Below, one piece after another: positions 1,186 to 37,998 of a stretch of DNA of 64,000 nt (within the stretch, counting starts at the first letter, position 1; the number at the start of each line of letters is the position of its first letter). The DNA is from Spirochaetales bacterium. Its GTDB lineage: Bacteria; Spirochaetota; Spirochaetia; DSM-27196; SLAA01. The translations under genes and the position numbers were made by a program. The stretch covers positions 11,447 through 75,446 of the forward strand of contig SLAA01000010.1 in the NCBI GenBank assembly GCA_007127105.1, written 5' to 3'. The notes under the pieces were generated by a model. That model ran no database searches and had not been told where the DNA came from. It saw only the letters and a list, made by a program, of their open reading frames with translations.

Positions 1186-2457
1186 CTACGGTCGAATGCG
1201 CTTCCGGTCTCGAGGAAAGAGTGAGGCTTCCTTCACGTTCGTCAGACCAAGAATCTTCTGCGTCAACCGCTCAAGACCAATAGCAAAACCACCATGCGGT
1301 GGGCAACCGTAGCGAAAGATCTGCGCGTAGTCGGCCAGCCCTTCCTCGGTAAGTCCAAACTTTGGTAGCGCGTCCAGCAACATGTCGTACTCGTTAATGC
1401 GACGTCCGCCGGTGGTTATCTCCAGCCCACGGAACAGCAGATCAAAACTGCTGGTCTTCTGCCCGTCGGGATAGGCGTAGAATGGCCTCTTCTTCCGTGG
1501 AAAGGCGTTCACAAAAACTGCCTCAACTCCGTGAGTCTCCACGGCCCAGTCACACAGAACCCGCTCACCCTCGGGATTGATCTCGAACACCCGTCGCCCA
1601 AGTTTGGTGCTAATGATTTCTTTCGCCTCGTCGTGAGTTATTCGTGGAGTCTTGCGGATCTCTTCGGTGCTGGGTACGCGGGCATCATACTCGGTCAGAA
1701 TTCGAGCGCAGTCGCGCTCCACACAGCTGAACACATGCGCCAGTATCTCCACCTCAAGATCCATGAGATCATGCTCATCCTTGATGAAGGCGGTTTCTAC
1801 ATCAAGTGAAACATACTCGTTAAGGTGCCGCGGAGTATCGTGCTTCTCTGCCCTGTAAGCAGCGCCAATCTCAAAAACGCGTTCCATACCACTTGCCACC
1901 ATGGCTTGTTTGTAGAACTGAGGCGACTGGGCAAGGTAGACACGATTCTCAAAATACTCGACAGCAAATAGTCCGGTGCCGCCCTCGGTTCCGGTTCCTA
2001 TGAGTTTGCTCGACTTAATCTCGGTGAACTCCTGGCCACGCAAATACTCGGCAAAGGAGCTCAACAGACTTGACTGCAAATAAAAGATGTCCCGAATCTT
2101 TGGGTTGCGGAGCGAGATGACTCGCTGATCCAGCACGGCCTCAAGACCAACCTTGTCGGGGTCTCCATTTACCTGAAAGGGTAAATCCGGCGCGGCCGGT
2201 GCGAGCAGTTCGGTTTCCACCACGGCTACCTCATATCCACCGGGGGCCTTTTCATTTGCACGAACCTCGCCGCGCGCGGTAATGACCGACTCGTGGGTGA
2301 AGTCGGGCTTGTTGTCATAGACCAACTGCACTATGCCGGAGCGGTCCCGAAGAAGAACAAACGAGATAGCGCCGAGCTCACGTATTCTGTGTACCCAGCC
2401 GCTTACTTCTACCTGCTTTCCAGACTCAGCGGCGATATCGCGAGTAAGTGTTCTCAT
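1186..2457 (-). CDS. aspS: Aspartyl-tRNA synthetase, archaeal/AspRS2 type (probably non-discriminating)
   Basis: 423-aa ORF. Class IIb aaRS motifs present: LAQSPQFYKQ, FEIGAAYRAEKHDTPRHLNEY (motif 2 region), GGFAIGLERL (motif 3). Size is typical of the short archaeal-type AspRS. Its ATG overlaps the gatB stop (TAATG, 2455-2459). Confidence 0.85.
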   Translation of the reverse strand: MRTLTRDIAAESGKQVEVSGWVHRIRELGAISFVLLRDRSGIVQLVYDNKPDFTHESVITARGEVRANEKAPGGYEVAVVETELLAPAAPDLPFQVNGDPDKVGLEAVLDQRVISLRNPKIRDIFYLQSSLLSSFAEYLRGQEFTEIKSSKLIGTGTEGGTGLFAVEYFENRVYLAQSPQFYKQAMVASGMERVFEIGAAYRAEKHDTPRHLNEYVSLDVETAFIKDEHDLMDLEVEILAHVFSCVERDCARILTEYDARVPSTEEIRKTPRITHDEAKEIISTKLGRRVFEINPEGERVLCDWAVETHGVEAVFVNAFPRKKRPFYAYPDGQKTSSFDLLFRGLEITTGGRRINEYDMLLDALPKFGLTEEGLADYAQIFRYGCPPHGGFAIGLERLTQKILGLTNVKEASLFPRDRKRIRP

Positions 2458-4901
2458 TACTGATCCTCCATGATCCGCTGCACTTCAAGCTCGTCCTCGG
2501 ACCCAAGCTGGGCGACAATGAGACGCGTGAATGCAGACTCGGTTGTGAGTCGCCCCATAGGGATTGCGCCCTCACGCCACAACTCGTGGCTTGTGACATA
2601 GTCGGCAAAATCAACCATGGCTTCCTGTTGTGATGTACAGAAAAAGGACACTCCGTTTGCGGCGCCGTACTGCAGGGCAGCTCGGAGAGAGTAGGGCGTT
2701 TCTCGCACGCTGGCGGTCCCTGTGTCGTAGAGCTCAAGAACAAAGTAGCGCACGCCGTTCTTCATAAGCGTAATAAGGTGGTCACCACGCATACCCGGGA
2801 AGGCCTTCACAATGAAACACCGCGACATGGCGTTCTCCAAGGCAGTCTGTACCGCCTTGCGGTCGGTGGGCTCAACGCCAGCGGCGGGATAAATGGGAGC
2901 AGGCAGGTGTGCTGGGTTTGAGTCTCCTCCAATCTCGTTCCAGGTGCGAAATACACCAGCGCGAGCAGCGCCTTCCTCAACCCGTTCAAACTTCAAGTTG
3001 AGTGGGGCAAACTCCTGAGCTCCGTACACAACACCAACACCTGGCGCGCCGGAGGCTGCCCGTTTCACAGCTGCACTGATATTGGCTACCGCCTCACTCC
3101 GAGGCTTTGCACTCCCGCGCTCAGAGTCATTCGGGACCGACGAGGCGGTTAAGACAATGGGAATGCGAGCCTTACCGAAAAACCAGTACAGCAAGGACGC
3201 GGTGTACGACAGGGTGTCGGTACCGTGAGCGACCACTATTCCTGCTGCCTCGGAGTCCTCAATACGTCGGGCTATCTCGGAGATGAGCACCGCCCAGTCG
3301 GCCGGGGCAATTTCCTCACTCAAGAATGCGCCTAGTTGTATCTCTTCAAGACGGAGTTCAGCCGGAAGTCCGGTATCACCGGCAAACTCGGTTCGTAAGT
3401 CAAAGAGTTCTCCCGGGCCAATGAGCCCGTCCTCGCGTCTCACACCTGAAATGGCACCGCCAAAGGAAAGCACATGGATAACCTTGACCGCCAGACGTGA
3501 AGAGATAAGTTCTTGCAGCAGCTGCGGCTCAGCCCTTCCCGATGTTGCCTTCATGACCTGGCCCACCAGAAATCCAACCGGTTTAGCATCGCCAGCACGC
3601 ACCTGCTCAACCGCGTTCGGGTTTGCCTTCAACACCGCATCTATGTACTCCGAGAGCTCGGCAGGGTCAGTAATTTGCTCCCAGCCTTTTGCTTTAATGA
3701 TAGCTGCTGGAGAAGCGTCCGAGACAAAGACCTCTTCAAGAACTTGTTTTGCAATCTTGCCGTGTATACGCCCCTCGTCCAAAAGACGCAGCAACTCCGC
3801 GAATCGTTCCGGATTGAGGACCGAGCTTTCTATGCTTTCGCCGCGGCGATTCAGCAGTTTCTTAACATCGGAGGCAAGCCAACTCGCCGCAGACTGCGGA
3901 TCAGCACCCAACGCGATGGTGTGCTCAAAGAACTCGGCGGTGCTTCGTTCATCAATGAGAAACTCAGCCTGTAGCTCGGATAGCCCGTATTCGTCAATGA
4001 ATCGTGTGCGCCGGGCAGCAGGCAGCTCTACAAGGCCCTTTTCTACCTCCAGCAGAAAGGCGTCGTCGGTAATAAAGGGCGGCAGATCTGGCTCCGGGAA
4101 GTAGCGGTAGTCGTGTGCACTTTCCTTTGTGCGCATTGGTTCGCTCACATCTCGGTTCTCATTCCAGAGACGTGTTTCCTGCACTACAGTTCCGCCACGT
4201 TCAAGAATGTCCTTCTGACGCGATATCTCAAAATTGAGCGCCTTGCGTACAAAGCGCGAGCTGTTCAGGTTCTTAATCTCAACCTTATTGCCCAGTCCGC
4301 CACCAGAAAGGTTCACCGAGACGTTTGCATCACAGCGCATGGAGCCTTCTTCCATGTTCCCGTCACACACACCCAGGTAGCGAACCATTCGGCGAAACTG
4401 CTGCAGGAGCACCTCTGCTTCCTCGCCCACCTCTAAATCAGGCTCGGTTACAATCTCCAGCAGTGGAGTTCCGGCCCGGTTGTAGTCCAGCAGCGACATG
4501 TCGCCAGCATGAATCATTTTCCCGGCGTCTTCCTCAAGATGAACCTCGTGAATGCGAACGCGGCGCTTTTTCTTGTGGAACTCAATGTCAACAAAGCCGT
4601 CTCGTCCGAGCGGATGTTCGTACTGGCTTATCTGATAGTTCTTGGGCAGGTCCGGGTAGAAGTAGTTCTTGCGCTCAAAGACGCTGCGTGGTGACAGGGT
4701 ACAGTTCAAGGTGCGGGCAACCACATAGGCCATACGCATGGCTTCCTGATTAAGCACCGGAAGAACTCCCGGATAGCCCATACAAACCGGACAGATATTG
4801 CTGTTGGGCTCATCCCCAAATGCTGCTTTGCAGCCGCAAAAAATTTTGGTTTGAGTCGCGAGTTGAATATGAATCTCTAGACCAATGAACGACTGGTACA
4901 T
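2457..4901 (-). CDS. gatB: Asp/Glu-tRNA amidotransferase subunit B fused to a C-terminal asparaginase/GatD-like domain (814 aa)
   Basis: The ORF track gives 2457..5057. The conserved GatB N-terminus MYQSFIGLEIHIQL starts at 4901, preceded by GGAG and 10 nt after the gatA stop. Residues 1-470 are GatB (PVCMGYPGVLP, YRYFPEPDLPP, GFLVGQVMKATSGRAEP). Residues about 472-814 (nt 3488-2460) carry the asparaginase motifs VAHGTDTLSYTAS and PIVLTASS. No stop or linker lies between the modules. Confidence 0.88.
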   Translation of the reverse strand: MYQSFIGLEIHIQLATQTKIFCGCKAAFGDEPNSNICPVCMGYPGVLPVLNQEAMRMAYVVARTLNCTLSPRSVFERKNYFYPDLPKNYQISQYEHPLGRDGFVDIEFHKKKRRVRIHEVHLEEDAGKMIHAGDMSLLDYNRAGTPLLEIVTEPDLEVGEEAEVLLQQFRRMVRYLGVCDGNMEEGSMRCDANVSVNLSGGGLGNKVEIKNLNSSRFVRKALNFEISRQKDILERGGTVVQETRLWNENRDVSEPMRTKESAHDYRYFPEPDLPPFITDDAFLLEVEKGLVELPAARRTRFIDEYGLSELQAEFLIDERSTAEFFEHTIALGADPQSAASWLASDVKKLLNRRGESIESSVLNPERFAELLRLLDEGRIHGKIAKQVLEEVFVSDASPAAIIKAKGWEQITDPAELSEYIDAVLKANPNAVEQVRAGDAKPVGFLVGQVMKATSGRAEPQLLQELISSRLAVKVIHVLSFGGAISGVRREDGLIGPGELFDLRTEFAGDTGLPAELRLEEIQLGAFLSEEIAPADWAVLISEIARRIEDSEAAGIVVAHGTDTLSYTASLLYWFFGKARIPIVLTASSVPNDSERGSAKPRSEAVANISAAVKRAASGAPGVGVVYGAQEFAPLNLKFERVEEGAARAGVFRTWNEIGGDSNPAHLPAPIYPAAGVEPTDRKAVQTALENAMSRCFIVKAFPGMRGDHLITLMKNGVRYFVLELYDTGTASVRETPYSLRAALQYGAANGVSFFCTSQQEAMVDFADYVTSHELWREGAIPMGRLTTESAFTRLIVAQLGSEDELEVQRIMEDQ

Positions 4902-4911
4902 ATGCGGCTCC

Positions 4912-6423
4912 CTACTGTTCGCCCGCAGGCCGCTCATACCCCGGCGCAAGCTCAGGTTTGTACAGCGTAGCGTAATCTCGTGCCGCTGCAAGAAGACGAG
5001 GCTCGCCAAAAGCCGGTGCCAGCAGCTGCATTCCCACCGGCAGGCCTTTGGGTACACCGGCCGGAAAGCTCAAGGCCGGAATTCCCGCGAGATTGGCGCT
5101 GGCAGTAAATTTGTCTGCCTGCTTCTGCTCAAACGGACTCATGTCCTCACCACCATGCCGAAATGCCTGTCGAGGAAAAGTCGGGGTAAGGATCATATCG
5201 ACCTCGCCAAAGCTGGCCTCAAAGTCCGTGCGAATTGCGGTTCGAATCTTCTGGGCTCGAAGATAATACTGATCCTGAAAGCCACTTCGCAGAACATAGG
5301 TTCCGAGCAGTATCCGCAGCTTGACCTCCGCCCCAAAGCCCTGGTCGCGACTCAGTCGAACAAGCTCTTCCGGATTCTCCGCGTAGTCAGGCCTAAGACC
5401 GTAACGCACCCCGTTGTACCGTGCCAGGTTAGCGCTGGCCTCTGCTGTTGCAATGGTGTAATAGACCGGTGCCACGTACTCGAGCATGGACAGCGATACT
5501 TCCTTGACCTCGTATCCCAGAGAGCGGAAGCCCTCCAGACAGGTCTGGTAGGTCTCCGCGACCTCTGCGCTCAACTCAAGCTGCTCCGGTTTAAGGACGC
5601 CCAAACACGGACTCTTGCCACGATATCCAAGGGAGGCTACACCCGCGGCGTCAGCATCATGCGACGCTGAAGGGACAGGGTCCATTGAGGTCTGATCAAA
5701 AGGGTCTGCGCCCGAAATCACCTCATATACCGCCTGAAGCACATCAAGATCCGTAGATATGGCACCAATTACATCTAATGATGAAGCATAAGCAACTAAC
5801 CCAAACCGTGAGACTGTCCCGTAGGTTGGTTTAAGTCCGTACACACCACAAAACGACGCGGGTTGCCGCACCGAACCGCCGGTGTCAGAGCCAAGCGCAA
5901 ATGGAACCAGCCCTGCGGCCACCGCCGCAGCCGAGCCACCGCTGGAGCCTCCAACGACATAGTCTTCATTCCAGGGGTTTGTAGTGCTCCCGAGAGCCGA
6001 GTTGTCGGTGGAAGACCCCATGCCAAACTCGTCAAGGTTGGTCTTTCCAACAGGAACGGCACCGGCATCTATGAGACGCTGCACCGCGGTTGCATGATAG
6101 GGGCTGTTGAAGTTCTCAAGAATGCGGGAGCCACAGCTGAGCCGAAACCCGTCGACAGCAATATTGTCTTTGACACCAAAGGGTAGCCCTGCCAATACTG
6201 CATGTTTCTCCGCCGACGCTACCTCACCGGGAGCGTTGCCGAGATGTCTTGTGGGATTGAACTCAAGGAAGGAACCAATGCGCGCATCTCGCGCGCGAAC
6301 AGCCTTCTCGTAGGCATCTGGAGAGTTCTCCAGTACGTTTTTCCAGAATGTAAGCACGTTGACGACCTGTTTACAAGACGTTTGGTATGACGATGAACCG
6401 GTCTTCAAGTTCCTCGGCCGCAT
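4912..6423 (-). CDS. gatA: Asp/Glu-tRNA amidotransferase subunit A (amidase family)
   Basis: Amidase signature [36 protein letters not shown], plus FGVKDNI. The start is uncertain. The ATG at 6423 overlaps gatC by 53 nt. A GTG 13 nt after the gatC stop ([10 protein letters not shown]...) is an alternative. Confidence 0.88.
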
Positions 6424-6655
6424 CTAACAGAGTGTCCGAATGAGCACCAGGAATGTCTCGTCGCTCATCCACGCGTGCGCGGGAACGGCTCACCTGCATA
6501 TGGGTGGTAGGTTCCAGCCCGCTGACATCGAACTCACTCATCTTGGAGAAATAGGCCACCATCTGCTCTACCTGCAGCGCAAGCCGAGAAATTTCTTCCT
6601 CGGTTAACTGAATGTGTGCAAGGTCGGCGGTAACGTAAAGCTCCTGAGTGTTCAT
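6371..6655 (-). CDS. gatC: Asp/Glu-tRNA amidotransferase subunit C
   Basis: 94-aa ORF. Typical GatC sequence (LAHIQLTEEEISRLALQVEQMVAYFSKM...PTTH) and position directly upstream of gatA. Confidence 0.88.
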   Translation of the reverse strand: MNTQELYVTADLAHIQLTEEEISRLALQVEQMVAYFSKMSEFDVSGLEPTTHMQVSRSRARVDERRDIPGAHSDTLLDAAEELEDRFIVIPNVL

Positions 6656-6773: not shown

Positions 6774-7139
6774 TTAGCTGAGTGCGGCATTCACTGCGGA
6801 GAGCAGGGTAGTTGCGTCAAAGGGTTTGCTGAGCACTTCCCGCGCGCCAAATTTCTGCACGAGTCGTTGGAAGGCATCGGTGTTCGTCGGCACCTTCCCG
6901 GATACCATGATAATGGGAAGCTCATTCCTCAGTGCGTGCGCATCTATCATGGTTTCAATCCCACCCTTGTCAGGCATGACGACATCAACAATGAGGAGAT
7001 CAAACACCTCTGACTCCACTATTTCCATCGCAGGCAGTCCACCAGAGGCTTCAACTACCTGGTGCCCGACATCCTGGAGAGAATCACGAACGAACTGTAG
7101 AAAGAGCTTATCGTCATCAACAACGAGGATCCGCGCCAT
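6774..7139 (-). CDS. Stand-alone response-regulator receiver (CheY-like) protein
   Basis: MARILVVDDD start at 7139; the ORF-track extension to 7229 has no homology. Has the acidic pocket DDD, the phospho-acceptor in LLIVDVVMPD, and the conserved SGK / KPF motifs. No output domain and no adjacent kinase. Confidence 0.8.
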   Translation of the reverse strand: MARILVVDDDKLFLQFVRDSLQDVGHQVVEASGGLPAMEIVESEVFDLLIVDVVMPDKGGIETMIDAHALRNELPIIMVSGKVPTNTDAFQRLVQKFGAREVLSKPFDATTLLSAVNAALS

Positions 7140-7263
7140 TTCATCTCCTTGGTAAACATGGAGTATATCGCGCGGGATCACTTGCCTGCAAGTCAATGCT
7201 ACATTTGGCCACCGCGCAGGGAGGCCCAAAATCGATGCTGGAAGGCTGGTACGGATAAAAGAT

Positions 7264-7385: not shown

Positions 7386-8843
7386 ATGGCATACGCAGCA
7401 ACACAACTTCAGACTGACCCGACGCTAAAAAAAGAATTTCCGCTTGTTCATTTCTATGATCAAGACTTTGTCGATGTCTACGACCAGACCTGGGCCTGGA
7501 TAGGCGACAGCTGGCACAAAGGAACGACGCGCAACAAGCTCCAACCTCGGTATTTTAACCACACAGAGTCCGAGGTTATCAACCAGTTTGAGGCATGTTT
7601 TTCAACCTTTTTTCTGGTTTACAGCAATCGTGTTCACCCGGCGACACCACAGATCGACAACTTCTATCAGATGCAGGAGTCGAACGGTGCAATTCGTTGT
7701 GAATACAGCGTGAAAGACGGGAAGGCGGTACCCCAGAAAGACAACGCAGAGGCGGTTGGCCCACCCTTGTTCTCCTGGGCTGAGTACAACATGTACCACA
7801 AGATTGGCAACAAGAAACGCGTAAAGGAGGTCATGCCCTATCTGGAAGCCTATTTCGGGTGGCTGGAAGCGACCTTCAAAAAAGAAAACGGCCTGTATGC
7901 GGTACCACTGTCCGCCACCATGATGACAAACTCCCCACGGAAGGGGATGCGATATGCGGTTGACTTCAACACCCAGCAGGCAATGAACGCGCTCTACATG
8001 GCTGAACTTGGTGACATACTCAACGACAAAGAGGTGAGTTTCCGCTACAAACGGCAGTACTTCTCGCTCAAGTCACGCATTAACTCAATGATGTGGAACG
8101 AGGAAGACGGGATCTACTACGATTTAGACAAGAATGAGGAACAGGTAAAGGTTAAGACCATTGCCGCATTCTGGCCTCTCTTGGCTGAACTCCCAAACGA
8201 TGCCAAAGCAGAAGCTCTCATTTCACACTTGAGTAATCCTGAGACCTTTGGGGTAGAGCATCCATTTCCGTCGCTCGCCGCAGATGAGCCGGAGTTCAGC
8301 GAAAAGGGTGCAGGATTCCGTGGTTCGGTATACCCGCCCTTCACCTTCATGGTCATTAAGGGCCTTGAAAAGTACGCCCGCTTTGACCTTGCGCGCGAAT
8401 GTGCGATCCGGCATATGTACTACATCCTCGACACCCTGCATCCCGAAGGCAAGGACAAAGGCATGGTCTGGGAAGCCTACGCACCGCGCAAAGATGGTCC
8501 TGCACAATGGAGCGGAAAGAAAGACTATCCGCGACCCATGTTGCTTGCCTACGTAGGTCTGTCGACAATCACACTCATGATAGAGAATATTATCGGGCTC
8601 TTTGTCAGCTTGCCGCGAAAGACCGTGGACTGGATTGTCCCTACGCTCGAGATCATGGGCATTGAGAATCTTTCACTGCGTCGCAATATGATCACTATTC
8701 TTTCGAACAAAAGTGGTCGAGGCTGGGAGATTCGTCTGGAGTCAGAGAAACTCTATTACTTCACTATTGATATTCTTGGTAAGAAAAAGAAAACTCTCCC
8801 GATTCCTTCGGGTAAGTGTTCTATGCTCATAGACAAACTATAG
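7386..8843 (+). CDS. (alpha/alpha)6-barrel glycoside hydrolase, GH63/MGH1/trehalase-like
   Basis: 485-aa ORF. By eye it resembles the C-terminal catalytic region of GH63/GDE_C-type hydrolases (FWPLLAELP...HPFPSLAADEPEF...GSVYPPFTFMVIKGLEKY). The family assignment is not verified. Confidence 0.5.
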   Translation: MAYAATQLQTDPTLKKEFPLVHFYDQDFVDVYDQTWAWIGDSWHKGTTRNKLQPRYFNHTESEVINQFEACFSTFFLVYSNRVHPATPQIDNFYQMQESNGAIRCEYSVKDGKAVPQKDNAEAVGPPLFSWAEYNMYHKIGNKKRVKEVMPYLEAYFGWLEATFKKENGLYAVPLSATMMTNSPRKGMRYAVDFNTQQAMNALYMAELGDILNDKEVSFRYKRQYFSLKSRINSMMWNEEDGIYYDLDKNEEQVKVKTIAAFWPLLAELPNDAKAEALISHLSNPETFGVEHPFPSLAADEPEFSEKGAGFRGSVYPPFTFMVIKGLEKYARFDLARECAIRHMYYILDTLHPEGKDKGMVWEAYAPRKDGPAQWSGKKDYPRPMLLAYVGLSTITLMIENIIGLFVSLPRKTVDWIVPTLEIMGIENLSLRRNMITILSNKSGRGWEIRLESEKLYYFTIDILGKKKKTLPIPSGKCSMLIDKL

Positions 8844-10729: not shown

Positions 10730-11622
10730 AAGAGCTCCTTTGTCCCGTCCGGGTCGGGTCGTCGTTTCGTTTCATTGACATGGTGGTCTATCATACGCCT
10801 TGCCAAACTTAAAGGTCCAGGAAGCGGAGGAAGTTCGTCTACCGCATACCACGCGGCCTCCGCTATTTCTTCCGGTTCCGGAGTGATCTTTCCTCCGGCG
10901 TACTCAGCGAAATAGCCAACCATCAATGCATCGGGAAAGGGCCAGGGTTGACTGCCAAAGTACTGCAGGTTTTTGATCCGCAGACCGACCTCTTCCATAG
11001 TCTCACGATGCACGCATTCCTCAAGCGTTTCGCCCGGCTCAACGAATCCGGCAATGAGACTGTAGTGGGGAAGACCGCGCCGAGCATTGCGGGCCAGAAG
11101 GATCTTATCCCCTTTGATTATTGCAGTGATAACGGCAGGAACTACTCGCGGATAGTTCTTGTTGCCACAGTTGGGACATTTCTTGCCCCGCTCCTGTTGG
11201 GCATGAAACAACTCGGTACTGCATGTACCACAGTAGCGCGAGTGAATATCCCACCGTAGAATATGGTAGGCGCGCCCAGCAACAAAAGCTAACTCTCGGC
11301 TGAGCCGCGGATACAAAGCTCGCAGGGTTCCGGCAAAGAGCCCCGCCGCTCGCAAGGAAGCCTCTTCAACGACATCGGTGCCCACCGAGGCTCCGGCGGG
11401 TGACATTGTGTACAAAGGACGTCCGTCAAGGCGTCCAAGGTACTGGCATGGGGTTTTCCACCGAATGGACGCAAGTTGCTCAAAGCTGGGAAGCTCCAGC
11501 CTGCTGCGTTTCTCGGGGTCACCCTTTACAACCAATTGATCTCCGCTGAAGGCCGCACACAGATCCTGGGGATCCGGCTTTGCCGGAGGAAGATACTCAG
11601 AAATAAACCGACTCGTTCTCAA
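10726..11622 (-). CDS. nudC: NADH pyrophosphatase / NAD-cap hydrolase (Nudix, NudC family)
   Basis: Zinc ribbon CGTCSTEL...CPNCGNKNYPR followed by the Nudix box GFVEPGETLEECVHRETMEEVG and the NudC-type SQPWPFP. The apparent TTG start overlaps the upstream stop (TTGA). Confidence 0.85.
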   Translation of the reverse strand: MRTSRFISEYLPPAKPDPQDLCAAFSGDQLVVKGDPEKRSRLELPSFEQLASIRWKTPCQYLGRLDGRPLYTMSPAGASVGTDVVEEASLRAAGLFAGTLRALYPRLSRELAFVAGRAYHILRWDIHSRYCGTCSTELFHAQQERGKKCPNCGNKNYPRVVPAVITAIIKGDKILLARNARRGLPHYSLIAGFVEPGETLEECVHRETMEEVGLRIKNLQYFGSQPWPFPDALMVGYFAEYAGGKITPEPEEIAEAAWYAVDELPPLPGPLSLARRMIDHHVNETKRRPDPDGTKELL

Positions 11623-12953
11623 AACACCATCACCCGTTGTCCATCGCTAAATATGCTAATTTTTCTTGTAGATTCCGATATCGCAATTGCAACCGCATCG
11701 CTCACCGCGGTAATGGCCGCTGCAGCTGTGTGCCGCGCGCCAAGCCCATAGGGGACTTTTCGCACTGCGGTGTTTGTGCGCACGTAGGTTCCAGCCGACA
11801 TGATGACGCCATCGCCACGAATAATAAAGGCTCCGTCAATTCGTGAGAACTCCTTAATGGTTTCCTCAAGACTCGGATCGAGAACGTTTCGTTCCTCTGC
11901 GTTGTATCCGTGGAAGGGGTTAATGACTAATTGCTGTGTGTGTTTTAACACCTCTTCGTGACTCCCAAGAACAAAGAGGGTGCCGACTGGCTTGCCTTCC
12001 CGTCCTTCCTCGGCAATCTCTCCTGAAATCTGGATAATTCGCGAAAACACAGCCTCTTCCAGGTCCCGTGGACGCTTGGTAGAACTCAGAGAGAAAAACA
12101 GTGCGAAATCACGCTCGACATCGGTATAGCTGATGGTATCAAGCTCCTGAGTTTCATCATTACCAAAAATGTTCAGCACCTTGTCGCCCTTCTTGAGTCG
12201 GCTCTTAGAAAGAAGGTAGATCAAGGACATCTCGACCAGGTTGCGTCGGCGCAGTCCCCTGTACGGAAGCTGAACGACCTCTCCAAACTGGTAGTCTTCG
12301 TATCGTGGGTACATATTCAAGTCTTGCGTAATGAGAAAGAGGGGCGGTGAGCCATAGGAGAAGTCTTCTTCCCGGAGGAAGGATAGTGTCCCTAAGGGGT
12401 CCGGATACAGAAGGACCGCCTGCAGCTCGGCCTCACGGGCCATGTGCATTGCGGCACGAAAGGTGATGCCAGCAATGCTGAGATTGTGTTCTGGAATTGT
12501 GGGTGCCGGTTCGACTGCGGTCGGTAGTAGTGCAGAAAGAACCTCATCGGCGGAGTTCGCGTTGAGTAAAGACGTTACCATAGACTCGCGAGCAAAGAGC
12601 CGTGCAATCTTGCTGAGCAACTGAATATGGTCGATATCGTTCCAAACAATGAAGACCACAACTCGCGTAAGTTCCCCGTCCTTGCCGTCCCAGGATATCC
12701 CCCCACGGCTTATCCCCACAGCAACAACACTTTCCGGTGCACCGAGAAGCTTTGCGTGGGGAATTGCTATTCCATCACCGACGTAGGTAGAAATTTGCGA
12801 CTCTCGCTCACTTACTGCTGTGTAGATTTCGGCACTTGGACGGGAGACAGCGGGAGCTACAAGCCTGCTAAGCTCATAGAAGGCTTCTGTCTTGCTGGTT
12901 GCGGTGAGAAAACAAATGCGTTCGCGGTCAAAGTACTTTACTACCTCCGTCAT
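11619..12953 (-). CDS. PTS EIIA(type 2)-domain / diadenylate cyclase (DAC, DisA_N) fusion protein
   Basis: 444 aa. Residues 1-145 are EIIA-2-like with GDGIAIPHAKL (His66). Residues about 298-444 are a DAC domain with IDGAFIIRGDG (DGA) and GLGARHTAAAAIT (RHR-type motif reading RHT). The ATG lies 4 nt after the lplA stop. Confidence 0.8.
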   Translation of the reverse strand: MTEVVKYFDRERICFLTATSKTEAFYELSRLVAPAVSRPSAEIYTAVSERESQISTYVGDGIAIPHAKLLGAPESVVAVGISRGGISWDGKDGELTRVVVFIVWNDIDHIQLLSKIARLFARESMVTSLLNANSADEVLSALLPTAVEPAPTIPEHNLSIAGITFRAAMHMAREAELQAVLLYPDPLGTLSFLREEDFSYGSPPLFLITQDLNMYPRYEDYQFGEVVQLPYRGLRRRNLVEMSLIYLLSKSRLKKGDKVLNIFGNDETQELDTISYTDVERDFALFFSLSSTKRPRDLEEAVFSRIIQISGEIAEEGREGKPVGTLFVLGSHEEVLKHTQQLVINPFHGYNAEERNVLDPSLEETIKEFSRIDGAFIIRGDGVIMSAGTYVRTNTAVRKVPYGLGARHTAAAAITAVSDAVAIAISESTRKISIFSDGQRVMVF

Positions 12954-17223: not shown

Positions 17224-17350
17224 GCCCCTTCAGCTCAGACCAAGCACACTGCGGCACATGAACCAACCGCTTACCGCTGCTGCCTTCCGGCCCTGACGGG
17301 GTTGGGCGGCGGACCATTGCACAGGGCCCGGCCGTCGACACTGAAGGGGC
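17224..17350 (-). ncRNA. ffs: Signal recognition particle RNA (small bacterial 4.5S-type)
   Basis: The minus strand reads GCCCCUUCAG...GUCAGGGCCGGAAGGCAGCAGCGGUAAGC...CUGAAGGGGC + U7. It has the domain-IV core CCGGAAGGxAGCAGC with a GGAA tetraloop, a terminal helix of 10 bp, and the conserved position just upstream of dnaX. Confidence 0.75.
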
Positions 17351-17355
17351 ACTAG

Positions 17356-17442
17356 CGGAGAGAGAGGGATTCGAACCCTCGGTACCCTTGCGAGTACATA
17401 CGCTTTCCAAGCGCACACCTTAAGCCACTCGGTCATCTCTCC
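17356..17442 (-). tRNA. tRNA-Ser (anticodon GGA)
   Basis: Hand-folded cloverleaf: GGAGAGA acceptor, anticodon loop UUGGAAA, long variable arm, T-loop GGTTCGAATCC. No encoded CCA. Confidence 0.88.
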
Positions 17443-17476
17443 AGAGCGCCGCCTAAACAGCGCACCATCACCAAAA

Positions 17477-17565
<89 letters not shown>

Positions 17566-21908: not shown

Positions 21909-21913
21909 ACTAA

Positions 21914-21987
21914 CGTGCCCAAGTGGACTCGAACCACCGGCCTTTAGATCCGCAATCTAACGCTCTATCCAACTGAGCTATGGGCAC
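21914..21987 (-). tRNA. tRNA-Arg (anticodon GCG)
   Basis: 74 nt: GTGCCCA-TA-GCTC-AGTTGGATA-GAGC-G-TTAGA-TTGCGGA-TCTAA-AGGCC-GGTGG-TTCGAGT-CCACT-TGGGCAC-G. Anticodon loop UU-GCG-GA. Confidence 0.88.
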
Positions 21988-21997
21988 AAAACCAATA

Positions 21998-22084
21998 CGG
22001 AGAGGGAGGGATTCGAACCCTCGGTACCCTTACGAGCACAACTCCTTAGCAGGGAGCCCGATTCAACCACTCTCGCACCTCTCC
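21998..22084 (-). tRNA. tRNA-Ser (anticodon GCU)
   Basis: Hand-folded: GGAGAGG acceptor, anticodon loop CUGCUAA, long variable arm, T-loop GGTTCGAATCC. Confidence 0.88.
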
Positions 22085-22107
22085 AGTGGTCTAACTAAAC
22101 TCTGCGA

Positions 22108-22192
22108 CGGAGAGAGTGGGATTCGAACCCACGGAACCTTGCGGCTCAACGGTTTTCAAGACCGCCTCCTTCAACCACTCGGACACCTCTCC
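22108..22192 (-). tRNA. tRNA-Ser (anticodon UGA)
   Basis: Hand-folded: GGAGAGG acceptor, anticodon loop CUUGAAA, long variable arm, T-loop GGTTCGAATCC. Confidence 0.88.
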
Positions 22193-22208
22193 GTTTCAAT
22201 GAGGGTTC

Positions 22209-25826: not shown

Positions 25827-26834
25827 TTACTGGGTGTCGGGGAGCAAGATTTCAACGACTCGGTCAAGGTCATCCATAGAAAGATAGGCAATTTCAATGC
25901 TTCCCTTCTCCAGACTCCCTTTAAGTTTGACCTTGGTGCCAAGAAGCTCTATGAGACGTTGCTCGATATCGGCTAACTCAGCTTCACCTGCCCGAAATCC
26001 AGCCTCTCCGCCTTTTGGCCGAGGACGTCCTTCGGGTCTGGTTCGTGGATCCAGGTCTCTTCCGGTGTCCGAAGCACCTTCTGCGAGGTCTGTTGCTTGC
26101 TCACCGTTCACCGGCGCACCAAATCTAAGCGCTGCAAAGGCTTCTTCCGGCAGCTCACCAGAAGACACTCGGGTTGCCAAGGTCTCGGTCATGCGTACCG
26201 ACAGCCCATGCTGAATAACCAGTTCACCGGCTCGAGTTAGATTTTCATCGTCTTTAATGGCCAGTAGGGCGCGCGCATGCCCAGCGGTAATCTCCTGGGA
26301 AACCAAGGCTTGGCTCACCTGCTCAGGCAAGCGCAACAAACGGAGTACATTCGCAACCGAGGAGCGCTTCATACCAAGCCTTCGCGCCGCTTCTTCCTGG
26401 TTGATCCCTGCCGACTCAATAAGAATCTGAATAGCTTGCGCTTCCTCAAGCGGATTCAGATTGCGACGCTGAATGTTCTCTATGAGCGCTATCTCAAGTC
26501 GTTCCTCGACGGTAAAGCTCCGAACGAGTACCGGCACCTCTGTTATCCCAGCCTCAAGCGAGGCTCGGTAACGGCGTTCACCCGCAACTATGCGGTACCG
26601 CCCCTCCTCAATCTGCTCGACCAGGATCGGCTGTAGAATGCCCTTTGAGCGAATAGAGTCGGCCAGCTCGTGGATAGCCTCGGGGTCAAAGTCTTTGCGG
26701 GGTTGGTCGGGGTTAGGTTCAAGCGAACTAAGAGGAACGTTTATAAGGTCTCGGCTGGTCTCTTCAGGAAGCGCTTCGCTTTCCTGGGCCTGAAGCAGCG
26801 CGTCTATTCCTCGGCCTAACCTTCGCTTAGCCAC
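25827..26834 (-). CDS. parB: Chromosome partitioning protein ParB/Spo0J
   Basis: KRRLGRGIDALL, the ParB box GERRYRA, and an HTH (QEEAARRLGMKRSSVANVLRLL). The likely GTG start at 26834 overlaps the parA stop (GTGGCTAA). The ORF-track ATG at 26894 would overlap parA by 68 nt. Confidence 0.9.
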   Translation of the reverse strand: MAKRRLGRGIDALLQAQESEALPEETSRDLINVPLSSLEPNPDQPRKDFDPEAIHELADSIRSKGILQPILVEQIEEGRYRIVAGERRYRASLEAGITEVPVLVRSFTVEERLEIALIENIQRRNLNPLEEAQAIQILIESAGINQEEAARRLGMKRSSVANVLRLLRLPEQVSQALVSQEITAGHARALLAIKDDENLTRAGELVIQHGLSVRMTETLATRVSSGELPEEAFAALRFGAPVNGEQATDLAEGASDTGRDLDPRTRPEGRPRPKGGEAGFRAGEAELADIEQRLIELLGTKVKLKGSLEKGSIEIAYLSMDDLDRVVEILLPDTQ

Positions 26835-27582
26835 GCGCCAACACCTCTTCGGCAAGCTTTTGGTAGGCCTTGGCTCCCGCGCAGTCTGCATCATAACGGC
26901 AAACCGGTACTCCGTGTGACGGCGCTTCGGATAGACGAACGTTTCGTGGAATCACGGTGCGGAACACCCGTTCCTTGAAATACCCAACCACCTCTTGCAC
27001 AACATCTTGTGACAAACGATTGCGAGAATCATACATCGTGAACACAATACCCTGAACACTCAAGTTAGGGTTAAGTGTCCGTTTGACTTGACGAATACTT
27101 GAGAGCAGTTGCGTAAGACCTTCCATTGCAAAGTACTCACACTGCAAAGGGATAATTACGTTGTCGGCCGCCACAAGCCCGTTCAAAGTCAGAATTCCCA
27201 ATGAGGGCGGGCAGTCGGTGAAGATATAGTCGTACTCATTTCGCAGCGGTTCGAGTCCTTCCTTGAGAAAGAACTCACGCCGTTCCTCCGAGACCAACTC
27301 AACGCCCGCCCCGGTAAGATTAATGCTAGATGCAATGATATCAAGGTTTGGTAGCATGGTCGTCTGCACCGCCTCACGGGCACTAGCGGTACCGGTAATA
27401 ACCTCGTAGATTCCCTTGCCGTCAATAGCCGCGCTCACCGTACTCGAAAGGTTACACTGTGCATCGAAATCCACTAGCAAGACCTTCTTTCCAGCAAGGC
27501 TCAAATACGCCCCGAGGTTGACTGCGGTGGTGGTTTTTCCAACCCCGCCTTTCTGATTTGCAAATACAGTGATTAGTCCCAT
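26827..27582 (-). CDS. parA: Chromosome partitioning ATPase ParA/Soj
   Basis: 251 aa. Has the deviant Walker A NQKGGVGKTTT. Confidence 0.95.
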   Translation of the reverse strand: MGLITVFANQKGGVGKTTTAVNLGAYLSLAGKKVLLVDFDAQCNLSSTVSAAIDGKGIYEVITGTASAREAVQTTMLPNLDIIASSINLTGAGVELVSEERREFFLKEGLEPLRNEYDYIFTDCPPSLGILTLNGLVAADNVIIPLQCEYFAMEGLTQLLSSIRQVKRTLNPNLSVQGIVFTMYDSRNRLSQDVVQEVVGYFKERVFRTVIPRNVRLSEAPSHGVPVCRYDADCAGAKAYQKLAEEVLARG

Positions 27583-27621
27583 AGTAATGTGGCCGGATTA
27601 TACACGATACATGACGCTCTG

Positions 27622-28887
27622 TCAGTCCGAATCGTCTCTGGTGTGCAGGTGCGCCTCAATAAAGCTCTTTCGGGCTCGCTCTCGAATCCCAATTGCCAAT
27701 GCAAGCATAGACACGAGAATACCCTCCGGCGTGCGTGGTGGTCGCGGAGAGAGAGGAAATGTCGAGTTCAGAATGATGTCTTTCTCGGTGTCGCTGAAGG
27801 GTTCCCACCGAGACCACTGCTCACGAAAGAAGGACTGGGTAAAGATCTCCCAGTTTTTTCGGGTCTGTCGTACAGGATCAGGGCTGGGGAGTCGAAGCAG
27901 CGCACCACGAAAGGACGCTTCTGCATCGAGGCCAAGAGATCTCGACAGCCGAAATGCGGCGCGGGCCACGCGCTCGTTGTGCTCACGCAGGTTTGTGGTG
28001 CCAAAGGATTCCTCTTGAAGGTGCTCGTACTCGGGTACAGACACAATTGGATTCTTAAGCTGCTCCAGCCGAGCCTGCTCCGCTTCCGGAAGCTCTCCAA
28101 GCACAACCGCAAATGACCCCGATGCCTCCGTTTCATCAGGCGTCTCGCCCATGACATGCTGTACCAAAGCCCTAAGCTCACGCCTCTCTGCAAACGATGA
28201 GATCAAGTGCTCAGGGCCGGTCGCCAACAGCTTTTGCAGCGGATCATGAAGCGCGCCCGCATATTTGTGGAAGACTTCACCACTCAAGGACCGCAAACGG
28301 TCCAGCTCAAGCTCGGCCCTGCCCCGCAACTCATCCACGCGTTGTTGCAAAGCGCGGAGGGCACGGCTCGAGATTGCTACATCAAAGAGCAGGTAAAATA
28401 GCAAGCCCAAAGCTAAGGCCTGAGTAGTTGCAGGAGGAAGCCTCGTGAAGAACTCATTCAGGTGTGGTTTAATGCCGTGAATAACCACCAGGGTAAGCAG
28501 CAACCAGTACAGCGAGTAGCGAAGTGCGATACGCCCGTGAAGGTTAAAGCGATAACTGGAGTAGTCCCACAATCGCAGTCCAAATACACGCTCCATAACC
28601 CAACCGGCAAGATACTCAAGCAGCGTCACTAGCACCGTCAGCAGCAGGACTGCCACAACGTAGGACAAAGGTTGCAGCGGAATGTAGAGGACATGAATGA
28701 TAAGACCTCCAAAGCCGAACACCGGAATAAAGGGGCCGTACAGAAACCCTGAGTTAATCAGTCGATGATTCTTGAAACTCCGAAAGGTCGACTCGATGAT
28801 CCAGCCTAGAAAGGCGTAGAACATGAAAAAGAGAAAGAGTTGCACGAAGAGGTCCATCAAATCCATTCCTTTGTCAGATAGCGCCAA
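27622..28887 (-). CDS. Membrane protein (DUF1113/'ABC-transporter type IV'-like N-terminus) with a degenerate HD-like C-terminal domain
   Basis: 421 aa; an alternative ATG is at 28866. The N-terminus has 5 TM segments (FYAFLGWIIESTF...). The C-terminus has the HD-domain helix pattern (HNERVARAAFRLSRSLGLD...), but the HD dyad position reads RL. It lies directly upstream of parA on the same strand. Confidence 0.45.
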   Translation of the reverse strand: MALSDKGMDLMDLFVQLFLFFMFYAFLGWIIESTFRSFKNHRLINSGFLYGPFIPVFGFGGLIIHVLYIPLQPLSYVVAVLLLTVLVTLLEYLAGWVMERVFGLRLWDYSSYRFNLHGRIALRYSLYWLLLTLVVIHGIKPHLNEFFTRLPPATTQALALGLLFYLLFDVAISSRALRALQQRVDELRGRAELELDRLRSLSGEVFHKYAGALHDPLQKLLATGPEHLISSFAERRELRALVQHVMGETPDETEASGSFAVVLGELPEAEQARLEQLKNPIVSVPEYEHLQEESFGTTNLREHNERVARAAFRLSRSLGLDAEASFRGALLRLPSPDPVRQTRKNWEIFTQSFFREQWSRWEPFSDTEKDIILNSTFPLSPRPPRTPEGILVSMLALAIGIRERARKSFIEAHLHTRDDSD

Positions 28888-28972
28888 AACTCATATTTAT
28901 ACCTAGATTGACTCAATATTGTATATTCATTACAAAGATGAGCACGATTTTTCTCACAAACGGAGGTAGTTC

Positions 28973-29737
28973 ATGAAGAAGTTAATCACAGCAGCAATAC
29001 TTGTCACGGTGGCGCTCAGTATGGTGTTGCTTGCATGCAGCCAGGCCGAGGAAGCGGACGGAGTACCACGCATTGTCATTGGTACCGATGCAACCTGGCC
29101 TCCAATGGAGTTTATTGATCAGTCGACTCGGGAGATCATTGGGTTCGATATCGACCTAATGAAAGCAGCGGCTGAAGCAGGTGGCTTTGAGGTTGAGTTT
29201 CGTAACACCGGTTGGGACGGCATATTCGCTGGACTCGCTACTCGTGAATACGACGCGGTCATGAGCTCGGTAACCATCACCGAGGAGCGAATGGAGACAA
29301 TGGACTTCTCAATCCCTTACATCAATGCAGGGCAGATTCTGGTGGTTCCGGTAGCTACTGAGGGCGTAAGCTCCCTTGCCGACCTATCTGGCAGGCAGGT
29401 AGGTGTGCAGATTGGAACAACCGGTCAATTCGCCGTTCAGGACTATCCAGAAATCAACGTTGCTACCTATGACGAGATTGGTCTGGCGTTTGAAGATCTT
29501 GCAGTAGGTCGACTTGACGCAGTTGTAGCGGACACCCCGGTCGCCGCGAACTACGCTCTGCAAAACGAAAACTACTCGCAGTCGCTTAAGATTGTCGGCG
29601 AACCCTTCACTGAAGAGTTCTACGGTGTTGCGGTGCGTAAGGGTAACACCGAGGTTCTTGAGTTGATTAACCGGGGCCTCGAGGCTGTATTGGCTGCCGG
29701 AGTTGACGAGGAGCTTGCTGAAAAGTGGCTGAGGTAA
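28973..29737 (+). CDS. Polar amino-acid ABC transporter substrate-binding lipoprotein
   Basis: 254 aa. Has a lipobox (LLAC) and type-3 SBP motifs (GTDATWPPMEF, GFDIDL, DAVMSSVTIT.ER). Confidence 0.85.
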   Translation: MKKLITAAILVTVALSMVLLACSQAEEADGVPRIVIGTDATWPPMEFIDQSTREIIGFDIDLMKAAAEAGGFEVEFRNTGWDGIFAGLATREYDAVMSSVTITEERMETMDFSIPYINAGQILVVPVATEGVSSLADLSGRQVGVQIGTTGQFAVQDYPEINVATYDEIGLAFEDLAVGRLDAVVADTPVAANYALQNENYSQSLKIVGEPFTEEFYGVAVRKGNTEVLELINRGLEAVLAAGVDEELAEKWLR

Positions 29738-30528
29738 ACAATCGCGACGAGGCCAACCGCCGAATCACGGTTAATGTGAGCGATGGGGCATTGATCCCCG
29801 ATCGAGGAGAGACGTCACTGTTTTCTGCGTGGCGCATCTCCTTTTTCGGGGCTATTGCCCTCTTGATTATTCTACCGACGGTACGGCCACGGCCGTACCT
29901 CGACATCATGCGCTTCTTGCCGGACGGCATCCTCGCAACATTTCAGGTAACCATCATCTCTATTGTCATTGCACTCGCAATTGGACTGATCACCGGCCTC
30001 GGACGGATTTCGCGCATCACGGTAATCAATCGCATTGCGACAATATATGTTGAGGTTATCCGCGGAATTCCACTGCTGGTGCAGTTATTCTATATCTACT
30101 TTGCCCTTGGACAACTCGTCCGAGTCCCTCGTCTCGCCTCGGCAATCATTGCCATGTCGGTATGTTACGGGGCCTATATGGGAGAGATTTTCCGGGCGGG
30201 ATTGCAGGCAATTCCGAAGGGTCAAATGGAAGCCGCGCTTGCCTTAGGCATGAGTCGAGGTCAGGCGCTACGAAAGGTTATTCTTCCTCAGACCTTCAGA
30301 GTCATTCTACCGCCGGTTGGCAATGAGTTTATCGCGCTCCTGAAAGACTCATCCTTGGTTTCGATCATCGCAGTGTCGGATCTCCTCCGGCGCGGACGAG
30401 AATTTGCCTCGGTCAGCTTTCAGTACTTTGAAACCTACACAGTGGTTGCACTCGTGTACTTAGTTATTACGCTCTTCTTGTCGAAGATCGTCTCGTTAAT
30501 TGAAGATTGGGCGGAGCGCCGTGGATAG
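29725..30528 (+). CDS. Polar amino-acid ABC transporter permease (HisMQ/GlnP family)
   Basis: 267 aa. EAA-loop region ([24 protein letters not shown]). The GTG start overlaps the SBP stop. The N-terminal 60 aa are uncertain. Confidence 0.85.
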
Positions 30529-30550
30529 TAGCACAGAAAACACTCAACCT

Positions 30551-31276
30551 ATGCGAATACGAATTCGCAACGCAACCAAGGCTTTTGATACACTTGAAGC
30601 AGTGAAAAACGCAGACCTCGATGTCGCCCCTGGTGAGGTTGTACTCATTATTGGGCCATCCGGTAGTGGCAAGAGCACCCTCCTCCGTTGTGTAAACCGT
30701 TTGGAAACACTCACCGAAGGAGACATCTGGATAGATGAAGACCTCGTAACCGATCAACGCGGAGATATCCGCAAAATACGCGAAGAGGTCGGTATGGTCT
30801 TTCAGAACTTCAATCTTTTCCCGCACTTGACTGCGTTAGAAAACATTATGCTGGCGCCACGTACGGTAAAGGGAGTTACAAAGACCGCGAGTCGCGAGAA
30901 TGCCCTTCGCCTGCTCGCTCGGGTTGGACTTCAGGACAAGGCGACAACCTATCCGGCGAAACTCTCGGGTGGACAGCAGCAGAGGGTGGCAATAGCGCGC
31001 GCCTTGGCAATGAATCCTAAGGTTATGCTTTTTGACGAACCTACATCGGCACTGGATCCGGAAATGATCAAGGAAGTACTGGACGTCATGCTTGATCTTG
31101 CCCGGGAGGGAATGACCATGCTTGTAGTGTCCCATGAAATGGGCTTTGCACGGGCGGCGGCGGATAAAGTAGTGTTTATGGATCAGGGAGAAATCATTGA
31201 GGTCGGTACGCCCTCCGAGGTTTTCGATAACCCGAAAGAGAATCGGACACGACGGTTTCTTGAACATATATTGTGA
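30551..31276 (+). CDS. Polar amino-acid ABC transporter ATP-binding protein (GlnQ-like)
   Basis: Walker [10 protein letters not shown], signature [15 protein letters not shown], Walker [15 protein letters not shown] at 30551. An alternative GTG at 30521 overlaps the permease stop. Confidence 0.9.
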
Positions 31277-31457
31277 GGTAGGGGTAGATCGTCATGCCTT
31301 CCCATAGGCAACAGCTTAAGGTTTTTTGACTTTAGAAGGTCCTCAAATTGGACGAGAATGAATCGATGAAGTCGAAAAAAAATATCTTATCAAGTTTAGT
31401 TGCAATTTACTCGGAAAACGTTACATTTAACGGTAGCTTAACGAAGGATTCGACTTC

Positions 31458-32543: not shown

Positions 32544-32547
32544 GGCT

Positions 32548-33183: not shown

Positions 33184-33185
33184 AA

Positions 33186-33201
33186 TGTTCCACGTGGAAC
33201 A
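33186..33201. promoter_or_regulatory. parS centromere site (perfect palindrome variant)
   Basis: TGTTCCACGTGGAACA has one deviation from consensus, which makes it a perfect 16-bp palindrome. It begins 3 nt upstream of the yigZ start codon. Confidence 0.75.
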
Positions 33202-33279
33202 TCGGCGCCGGGATCAATACCCGGCGCCGAAGGTTGTACGCAAGAGGGGCCGCCCGGCTTATTCAAGCCGAGACGGACC

Positions 33280-35901: not shown

Positions 35902-37998
<2,097 letters not shown>

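Follow-up and report, generated by a model that had tools for sequence, protein, structure and literature searches.

The gatB fusion and its operon

The stretch of DNA analysed here (the window) comprises 64,000 nucleotides from a Spirochaetales bacterium (contig SLAA01000010.1, assembly GCA_007127105.1) and contains an operon with the gene order gatC-gatA-gatB~ASN-aspS. The third cistron encodes GatB, the kinase/transamidase subunit of the amidotransferase GatCAB, which continues in-frame into an asparaginase-like domain, in the following called ASN (residues 471-814 of the fusion protein). The coordinates of the four genes, and of the domains and motifs of the fusion protein, are collected in Table 1.

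Table 1. Genes of the gatB~ASN operon and domains and motifs of the fusion protein, with the loci of the second form of the fusion (group 2, see below).
Feature	Residues	Position (in the window unless another locus is named)	Strand	Remarks
gatC		6371..6655	(-)	TIGR00135, 52.5 bits (cutoff 47.1)
gatA, amidase-type glutaminase subunit		4912..6423	(-)	TIGR00132, 500 bits (cutoff 481)
gatB~ASN fusion coding sequence	1-814	2457..4901	(-)	814 amino acids plus stop; four Pfam domains in one frame
GatB_N cradle (kinase/transamidase)	5-282	4056..4889	(-)	Pfam, 382 bits
GatB YqeY-like tail	323-470	3492..3935	(-)	PF02637, 155 bits, profile positions 1-148 of 148
Asparaginase N-terminal lobe	475-628	3018..3479	(-)	PF00710, 82 bits, E 4e-23
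Asparaginase_C lobe	696-811	2469..2816	(-)	PF17763, 37 bits (cutoff 34.6)
GGAIS motif	481-485	3447..3461	(-)	Ala483 (GCC, 3453-3455) in place of the nucleophile Thr of TGGTI
S528-E529-E530	528-530	3312..3320	(-)	Equivalent of the substrate-binding Ser-Gln/Glu
HGTDT motif	559-563	3213..3227	(-)	Second catalytic Thr and Asp kept (T561, D562)
LNLKFER motif	634-640	2982..3002	(-)	K637 near the catalytic-Lys column; R640 also conserved
aspS, archaeal-type non-discriminating aspartate--tRNA(Asn) ligase, 423 amino acids		1186..2457	(-)	Start overlaps the fusion stop
Group-2 fusion loci		e.g. L064:4612-7005		L007, L013, L015-L019, L021-L041, L043, L044, L047-L050, L052, L064

The fusion gene is a single uninterrupted open reading frame (ORF), given in the ORF list as 2457..5057 of the minus strand. 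The start is the ATG at 4901, which lies 10 nt past the gatA stop in the context TAG-GGGAG-N6-ATG, with GGGAG as the Shine-Dalgarno sequence, and which gives the N-terminus MYQSFIGLEIH common to the homologues. The longer reading of 866 amino acids from the GTG at 5057 was rejected, as it reaches 146 nt into gatA and the homologues begin with MYQS. At the other end, the TAA stop of the fusion and the ATG of aspS overlap as TAATG, and the non-discriminating (ND) aspS is translationally coupled to the fusion.

NCBIfam identifies residues 2-471 as GatB (NF004012, 630.8 bits against a cutoff of 338; TIGR00133, 555.6 bits against 314.8). This part is complete, since it aligns end to end with the solved GatB structures, the alignment to A. 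aeolicus GatB (3h0l_B, 507 bits) covering residues 5-471 of 478. The canonical GatB residues H11, H121, E123, K128, E149, D191, E208 and K210 are all present. Of the metal and kinase site, H11 (in GLEIH), E123 and E149 are aligned to those of the solved GatB proteins, and their GatE counterparts are His15, Glu157 and Glu184, from which the role of these residues is known (PMC2330236). By all sequence-testable criteria the gene product is thus a bona fide GatB. The adjacent gatA is likewise intact in its motifs: VKDNI, GGSSGGS and GSDTGGS are conserved relative to A. aeolicus GatA (3h0l_A, 396 bits), and the Ser-cisSer-Lys catalytic motifs are intact.

The asparaginase N-terminal lobe begins about 4 residues beyond the GatB tail, and the first strand of ASN, in a model made with AlphaFold2, is formed by domain residues 3-9. 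The model has a mean predicted local distance difference test score (pLDDT) of 81.6 and a predicted template modelling score (pTM) of 0.87, and in a Foldseek search its top matches were all asparaginases, namely archaeal and Bacillus type-I enzymes (E 5e-18, TM about 0.72), with GatD only at rank 16 (TM 0.68). ASN forms a complete two-lobed type-I asparaginase fold. The motifs SFGGAIS (479-485), VAHGTDT (557-563), PIVLTASS (581-588) and LNLKFER (634-640) are all found in it. An earlier note, made from the sequence of the window without database searches, had described most of this arrangement, and its account stands: the ORF of 814 codons from MYQSFIGLEIH is supported by the ORF list, the start context and the homologues, the complete GatB (residues 1-470) by the profile match and the alignment to 3h0l_B, and the direct fusion to a two-lobed asparaginase-type domain by both Pfam lobes, the model and Foldseek. 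The motifs that it quoted lie where it placed them, profile searches with the two halves matched GatB and asparaginase-family models, respectively, and the normal GatA and the GatC that it placed directly upstream score above their family cutoffs.

The possibility that an assembly error, a frameshift or wrong gene calling has joined gatB to a separate asparaginase gene can be given practically no weight. The fusion is not an assembly artefact, because about 50 assemblies obtained independently show this uninterrupted frame too, with 91-95% amino-acid identity in L001 (see below) and with complete chromosomes included, among them that of the isolate Breznakiella homolactica (CP067089), a closed metagenome-assembled genome (CP070696) and the loci behind the RefSeq proteins of Treponema phagedenis. 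In the window itself the GC content is continuous across the GatB/ASN junction, and there is no composition break.

Active site of the asparaginase-like domain

In phmmer alignments to the solved archaeal type-I asparaginases, Ala483 falls on the nucleophilic Thr of GGTI, and the same placement was obtained by profile-profile alignment (hhalign, probability 100%) against 20 stand-alone TGGT asparaginases. The Thr-to-Ala change, previously read from an alignment by eye, is thus upheld by both methods. According to the alignments, the counterpart of the S528-E529-E530 triplet is SED in GatD (1zq1_A) and DST/GSQ in the archaeal asparaginases. S528, E529, E530, the HGTDT motif, N635, ELY..GT, CTSQQ and D764 are invariant in 48 of 48 aligned spirochaete fusions. 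In the C-lobe the family-invariant motifs are ELYDTGTA (723-730) and CTSQQE (755-760), and compared by eye the conserved elements ELY..GT, CTSQQ and D764 appear to match the loops that complete the pocket of the neighbouring subunit in asparaginase dimers.

The position of the catalytic Lys is less straightforward. Depending on how a window-specific insertion of 5 residues is gapped, the catalytic-Lys column falls on R640 (phmmer) or on F638 (hhalign), and K637 lies one residue off this column, on a strand predicted in the AlphaFold2 model at domain residues 166-169. Residue 637 is Lys in 43, and residue 640 is Arg in 37, of the 48 aligned fusions, and the catalytic Lys is probably retained as K637. 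The flexible-loop Tyr of the asparaginases is absent; L493 was aligned to Tyr21 of 4q0m, and this column is variable across the fusions, with L, M, E, A, T and others.

The amino-acid pocket looks preserved, with the nucleophile replaced by Ala or another small residue. The asparaginase mutants T13A (BlAsnase, 7c8x) and T19A (guinea-pig ASNase1, 5dnc) hold intact L-Asn according to their PDB entry descriptions, and since these crystals keep the unhydrolysed ligand, the natural GGAI is a plausible appearance of a site which binds but does not hydrolyse.

The domain is also well maintained by selection. The nearest relative of the window is a metagenome-assembled genome (L001: PXEI01000314, Spirochaetaceae T3Sed10_372) with 91-96% amino-acid identity across the operon, and the ratios of non-synonymous to synonymous substitution rates (dN/dS) between the two are 0.041 for ASN, 0.030 for the helical and tail part of GatB and 0.019 for the cradle. 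Purifying selection on ASN is strong, and in the evolutionary sense the domain is functional. One may consider that ASN is an inert relic of an old fusion, or an appendage serving merely folding or stability, and the lost nucleophile and the faster evolution of ASN relative to the GatB cradle (about 53% against about 73% identity to the related locus L002) would fit such an explanation. However, it is very unlikely in view of the dN/dS of 0.04, the dozens of residues that do not vary among about 50 genomes from three clades, and the retention of ASN even where the GatB part has lost its own catalytic residues.

Distribution and the three forms of the fusion

A search with the ASN domain covered a collection of 5.8 billion proteins, and 120 matches were listed. 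The top 118 of these are spirochaete protein fragments, most of them annotated as GatB or "asparaginase domain-containing protein". GGAI is present in 62 of the 64 listed family members that cover the nucleophile motif. A survey of related genomes, which the earlier note had suggested, was carried out with one genome per species and revealed the in-frame fusion in about 52 Spirochaetota genomes; it also occurs in a Wallbacteria-like clade.

Group 1 consists of the window and 16 further loci with the operon gatC-gatA-gatB~ASN-aspS. Their GatB parts are fully canonical and share 63-95% identity with that of the window, and the eight residues listed above (H11 to K210) are invariant in 15 of 15 aligned sequences, as is Ala483. 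The aspS gene lies directly downstream in all 16 of the canonical-GatB loci with enough flank, and likewise in L081 and L083, so that the adjacency is kept even between clades whose ASN domains share only about 34% identity. No other partner of the fusion is as well conserved as ND-aspS, which the earlier note does not mention, and this conserved adjacency supports a link of the fusion to Asn-tRNA synthesis. The downstream ND-AspRS gene (NF003483, 502 bits, cutoff 353; TIGR00458, 382 bits, cutoff 368) would make Asp-tRNA(Asn) the expected substrate of the transamidation.

Group 2 (36 loci) includes Breznakiella homolactica, Gracilinema caldarium and Treponema from termite gut and rumen, as well as entries of Treponema phagedenis (WP_024752636.1 in RefSeq, A0A0B7GZF5 in UniProt). 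Here the gene stands alone, and the flanks that were retrieved contain no gatA, gatC or aspS. Its GatB part has 29-45% identity to that of the window and falls below every GatB cutoff (299 against 338), and the substitutions H11R, H121R, E149R, D191N, E208K and K210R were found in 33 of 33 sequences and K128R in 30 of 33. The GatE equivalents of the substituted His and Glu residues bind Mg2+ and are essential (PMC2330236). The YqeY tail and 51 of the 67 ASN invariants are nevertheless kept, and the group-2 protein looks like a repurposed GatB-like pseudoenzyme. Its position 483 is occupied by Ala in 19, Ser in 7, Thr in 6 and Gly in 1 of the sequences; such variation among small residues fits a steric rather than a catalytic constraint.

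A third, distant clade (P0132, P0137, P0139, P0140 and the Wallbacteria fragment P0108) has a canonical GatB and a gatCAB~ASN-aspS operon, and combines A483 with the replacement of T561 by Leu and of K637 by Arg or Gln. The spirochaete locus L081, which resembles group 1, has T483, with T561 changed to Ala. Overall, at least one of the two catalytic Thr residues is lost in 23 of 23 fusions with a catalytically intact GatB, and Thr483 and T561 occur together only where the GatB part is kinase-dead. Judged from these sequences, the loss of catalysis in ASN is selected and not accidental.

In two loci of the distant clade, L083 and L084, an extra asparaginase-like protein of 655 amino acids (2276-4243 in L083) heads the operon directly upstream of gatC. 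Its N-lobe is seemingly permuted, with HGTDT at about residue 180 and ATGGTI at about 302, and the dead ASN domain might have its partner in this protein. As its N-terminus resembled a receiver when inspected by eye, a "Rosetta-stone" link to the receiver gene found upstream of gatC in the window (see below) was considered; it was dropped, because there was no Response_reg match at E <= 1 and the stand-alone receiver is found in few loci.

These patterns bear on the possibility that ASN is a second active glutaminase or asparaginase feeding ammonia to GatB, either by another nucleophile such as T561 or by an altered mechanism. In favour of it, the fold is intact, T561, D562 and S528/E529 are invariant with K637 nearby, and GatD serves GatE, the paralogue of GatB, in this way, with Thr as the nucleophile (PMC2330236). 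In our data, however, the nucleophile is Ala in all spirochaete members of group 1 with a canonical GatB, T561 is lost in the other canonical clades, the flexible-loop Tyr is missing, and GatA is fully intact and adjacent. Thr-to-Ala asparaginases serve as inactive substrate traps, and the same change is said to abolish the activity of GatD. From the published GatCAB structures it also appears that ASN, sitting on the distal tail, would be far from the cradle entry of the GatA tunnel. We therefore regard a second active enzyme as quite unlikely. Of the two roles offered in the earlier note, the second ammonia-donor site is disfavoured by A483 in 15 of 15 sequences, T561 changed to Leu or Ala elsewhere and the intact GatA, and the catalytically dead binding module is the one that we favour.

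Origin of the asparaginase-like domain

The earlier note had compared the C-terminal module to GatD. The likeness holds for the fold, which is of the asparaginase/GatD type, but not for a specific descent from GatD. The NCBIfam GatD models give 102 bits (cutoff 310) and 99.5 bits (cutoff 324) on the C-terminal 340 amino acids, similar to the 98.9 bits of the type-I asparaginase model TIGR00519 (cutoff 260.5), and the GatD profile match spans positions 70-405 of 420, the N-terminal domain of GatD being absent. In an exhaustive search with a profile of the fusion family, about 36 fusion clusters (at 50% identity) scored above 219 bits, followed by a gap. Next below this gap come stand-alone proteins of 350-370 amino acids with the pattern IYTGGTIGG...LELYNSGTA...TSQQ (up to 176 bits), and true GatD proteins (P0205, P0236) reach about 118-124 bits. 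The closest non-fused relatives of ASN (P0142, P0144, P0157, P0164 and similar), which carry TGGTIGG, HGTDT, LELYNSGTA and TSQQ, belong to an uncharacterised bacterial asparaginase-like subfamily that itself scores about 204-229 bits against the TIGR00519 cutoff of 260.5.

A neighbour-joining tree of ASN, though a weak method, agrees with the profile search. It suggests that the fusions form one clade whose sister group is the stand-alone bacterial asparaginase-like proteins and not GatD, that group 2 is nested inside group 1, and that Ala483 is basal with Thr or Ser only in derived Treponema subclades. An origin from GatD by archaeal transfer is unsupported, the stand-alone bacterial proteins being closer than GatD.

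Genomic surroundings

Upstream of gatC a sigma-70-like site (TTGACA-17-AATAGT with TG, 6693-6665 of the minus strand) is found, recognised by its match to the consensus only. Further upstream, 118 nt from gatC and on the same strand, lies a receiver-only response-regulator gene (6774-7229), which as a stand-alone gene was found only in the window, L002, L003 and L081. An MGH1-like/trehalase-type glycoside hydrolase (7386-8843 of the plus strand) is conserved as the divergently transcribed neighbour of gatB~ASN, with 57-76% identity in 14 group-1 and 27 group-2 loci. Since both groups have this divergent hydrolase, they occupy the same ancestral locus. It is the only neighbour common to the gene loci of the Treponema clade, and it marks positional orthology with no functional link evident.

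In the Pfam scan of the window's larger ORFs, no asnS, glnS or asnA/B was found. Otherwise the window is an ordinary stretch of chromosome surrounding the replication origin. The origin region (25827-44714) contains parB (25827-26894), gyrA (33280-35868) and gyrB (35902-37953) on the minus strand, dnaA (38058-39440) on the plus strand, and dnaN, recF and yidC; the candidate oriC is the divergent gap between gyrB and dnaA at about 37954-38057. A 444-residue protein (11619-12953, minus strand) joins a phosphotransferase system (PTS) EIIA-2 domain (7-142) to a DisA_N diadenylate cyclase domain (314-439), and could be a sugar-PTS-linked synthase of cyclic di-AMP. The tRNA genes stand in two clusters on the minus strand, one with the signal recognition particle RNA followed by two tRNA-Ser (GGA, CGA) at 17235-17565 and one with tRNA-Arg(GCG), tRNA-Ser(GCT) and tRNA-Ser(TGA) at 21913-22193, so that Ser isoacceptors are 4 of the 5 tRNAs in the window. 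Two large ORFs, 53330-54817 (minus strand, 495 amino acids) and 54966-56171 (plus strand, 401 amino acids), had no Pfam match at E <= 1e-5.

Discussion

Our data favour, with a probability of about 0.6, that ASN serves the Asn-transamidosome as a module that binds an amino acid without hydrolysing it and probably dimerises, and not as a second enzyme. The ammonia for transamidation would still come from GatA, and ASN would act as a pseudo-asparaginase which has kept a pocket for Asn, Asp, Gln or Glu and does not hydrolyse its ligand. To our knowledge, all asparaginases and GatD form homodimers, and on this precedent ASN would homodimerise as well. Such a dimer may bring two GatCAB units together and link them to the dimeric ND-AspRS, perhaps depending on a ligand, and the outcome would be a protein-tethered or regulated Asn-transamidosome. 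As the Asn-transamidosome of T. thermophilus is held together by the tRNA with no direct protein-protein contacts (PMC3241645), the addition of a domain for docking or sensing would mark a genuine departure.

Several observations weigh against this interpretation. The proposed dimerisation, ligand binding and contact with AspRS are drawn from fold homology and gene order. T561, D562 and K637 are kept, which could reflect residual or altered catalysis, and the assignment of the catalytic Lys is ambiguous by 1-3 alignment columns. Thr or Ser is back at position 483 in some members of the Treponema clade, where the chemistry may matter. The same clade keeps ASN with a kinase-dead GatB part and with gatCA and aspS not nearby, and a domain that is retained without a working GatB site or aspS must have a core function that goes beyond helping GatB chemistry or docking a neighbouring AspRS.

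It is tempting to go one step further and see ASN as a natural substrate trap for Asn or Asp, although we hold this more specific version to be rather doubtful. The amino acid would then be bound unhydrolysed, either free or at the 3' end of the tRNA, by a dimer tying two GatCAB units to ND-AspRS, and the resulting ligand-responsive, protein-tethered Asn-transamidosome would parallel, in bacteria, the GatD-dimer core of GatDE. The Treponema form, in which the kinase site now consists of invariant Arg, Lys and Asn residues and in which ASN is kept with the Thr sometimes restored, would have been repurposed as a non-transamidating tRNA- or amino-acid-binding factor.

A different possibility is that ASN holds or acts on the aminoacyl end of the tRNA. 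By binding the Asp or Asn moiety of Asp-/Asn-tRNA(Asn) it might shield the product or pass it on, or it might hydrolyse a species that is mis-acylated or activated; without the nucleophile, the back-deamidation of Asn-tRNA would be prevented. This would be in line with the direct joining of ASN to the tRNA-binding YqeY tail, a tail that is conserved in both clades, and with the complementary pattern in which an intact GatB goes with an ASN lacking a catalytic Thr, and Thr483 together with T561 only with a kinase-dead GatB. On the other hand, the alpha-carboxylate that asparaginase pockets recognise has to be free, and in aminoacyl-tRNA it is esterified. ASN is in addition strongly acidic (isoelectric point about 5, net charge -14), which disfavours a general RNA-binding surface, and a role in RNA binding as such was set aside on these values. 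With no precedent found in full-text literature searches either, an action on the aminoacyl end appears unlikely, and the amino-acid-binding module of the Asn-transamidosome remains our preferred interpretation.

Public databases already contain proteins with the fusion architecture, under automatically assigned names, and in full-text literature searches, whose coverage did not extend to subscription journals, we found no paper describing or testing a GatB-asparaginase fusion. GatCAB and GatDE are treated as separate solutions, each combining a GatB/E-type kinase with a glutaminase, which is an amidase in one case and an asparaginase in the other. The bacterial GatCAB described here holds both folds in one complex, with the asparaginase-type one apparently disarmed by selection. 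Should ASN prove to dimerise or to sense an amino acid, a bacterial Asn-transamidosome would for the first time be seen to have a tether or regulator at the protein level. The family further offers a natural experiment in the evolution of pseudoenzymes, with an intact GatB beside a Thr-less ASN in one form and a kinase-dead GatB with the Thr sometimes back in the other, and the orthologue of Treponema phagedenis together with the cultured Breznakiella and Gracilinema strains makes the question experimentally accessible.

Comparison with known systems

Compared with the bacterial GatCAB of A. aeolicus (3H0L), S. aureus (2DF4) and T. maritima (3AL0), the GatC and GatA of the operon, like residues 1-470 of the fusion protein, are ordinary orthologues. 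The known GatB proteins end a few residues past the YqeY tail, whereas the fusion has 344 residues more, and its locus has the translationally coupled ND-aspS downstream. In other organisms components of indirect aminoacylation are also joined, as in the AspRS-GatC (NF009460) and GlnRS-YqeY (NF011291) fusions which appear in the NCBIfam match lists of the operon, but these join a synthetase to a part of the amidotransferase and none of them adds an asparaginase fold.

Type-I L-asparaginases are the best matches of ASN in both sequence (phmmer E 4e-18) and structure, the comparators being the enzymes of T. kodakarensis (5OT0), P. furiosus (4Q0M), P. horikoshii (1WLS) and B. licheniformis (7CB4). 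They share with ASN the two lobes, the HGTDT motif and the Lys-containing strand. ASN differs from them by (F/M)GGAI in place of TGGTI, by the missing loop Tyr and by the family's own invariants W573, NLKF, FRNWN, ELYDTGTA and CTSQQE. The engineered T13A (7C8X) and T19A (5DNC) enzymes carry the same substitution at the same position and keep both the fold and the unhydrolysed Asn, and offer the best model of how a natural GGAI pocket would behave; these are stand-alone laboratory enzymes, whereas the change in ASN is natural, ancient and conserved, and stands within a fusion.

Archaeal GatD (1ZQ1, 2D6F) resembles ASN in being a type-I asparaginase fold that works with a GatB/GatE-type kinase, and in its SE(D/E) substrate-binding, HGTDT and TSQ motifs. 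In contrast to GatD, which is a separate subunit, ASN is placed in cis on the C-terminus of GatB and has Ala at the nucleophile position, and its partner is a bacterial GatB with no GatE. A GatD-type supply of ammonia is not needed in the fusion system, since GatA is present. GatD forms the homodimeric core of the alpha2beta2 GatDE complex and holds two GatE subunits (PMC2330236), and it is this arrangement, an asparaginase-fold dimer holding two kinase subunits, that the fusion would recall, minus the chemistry.

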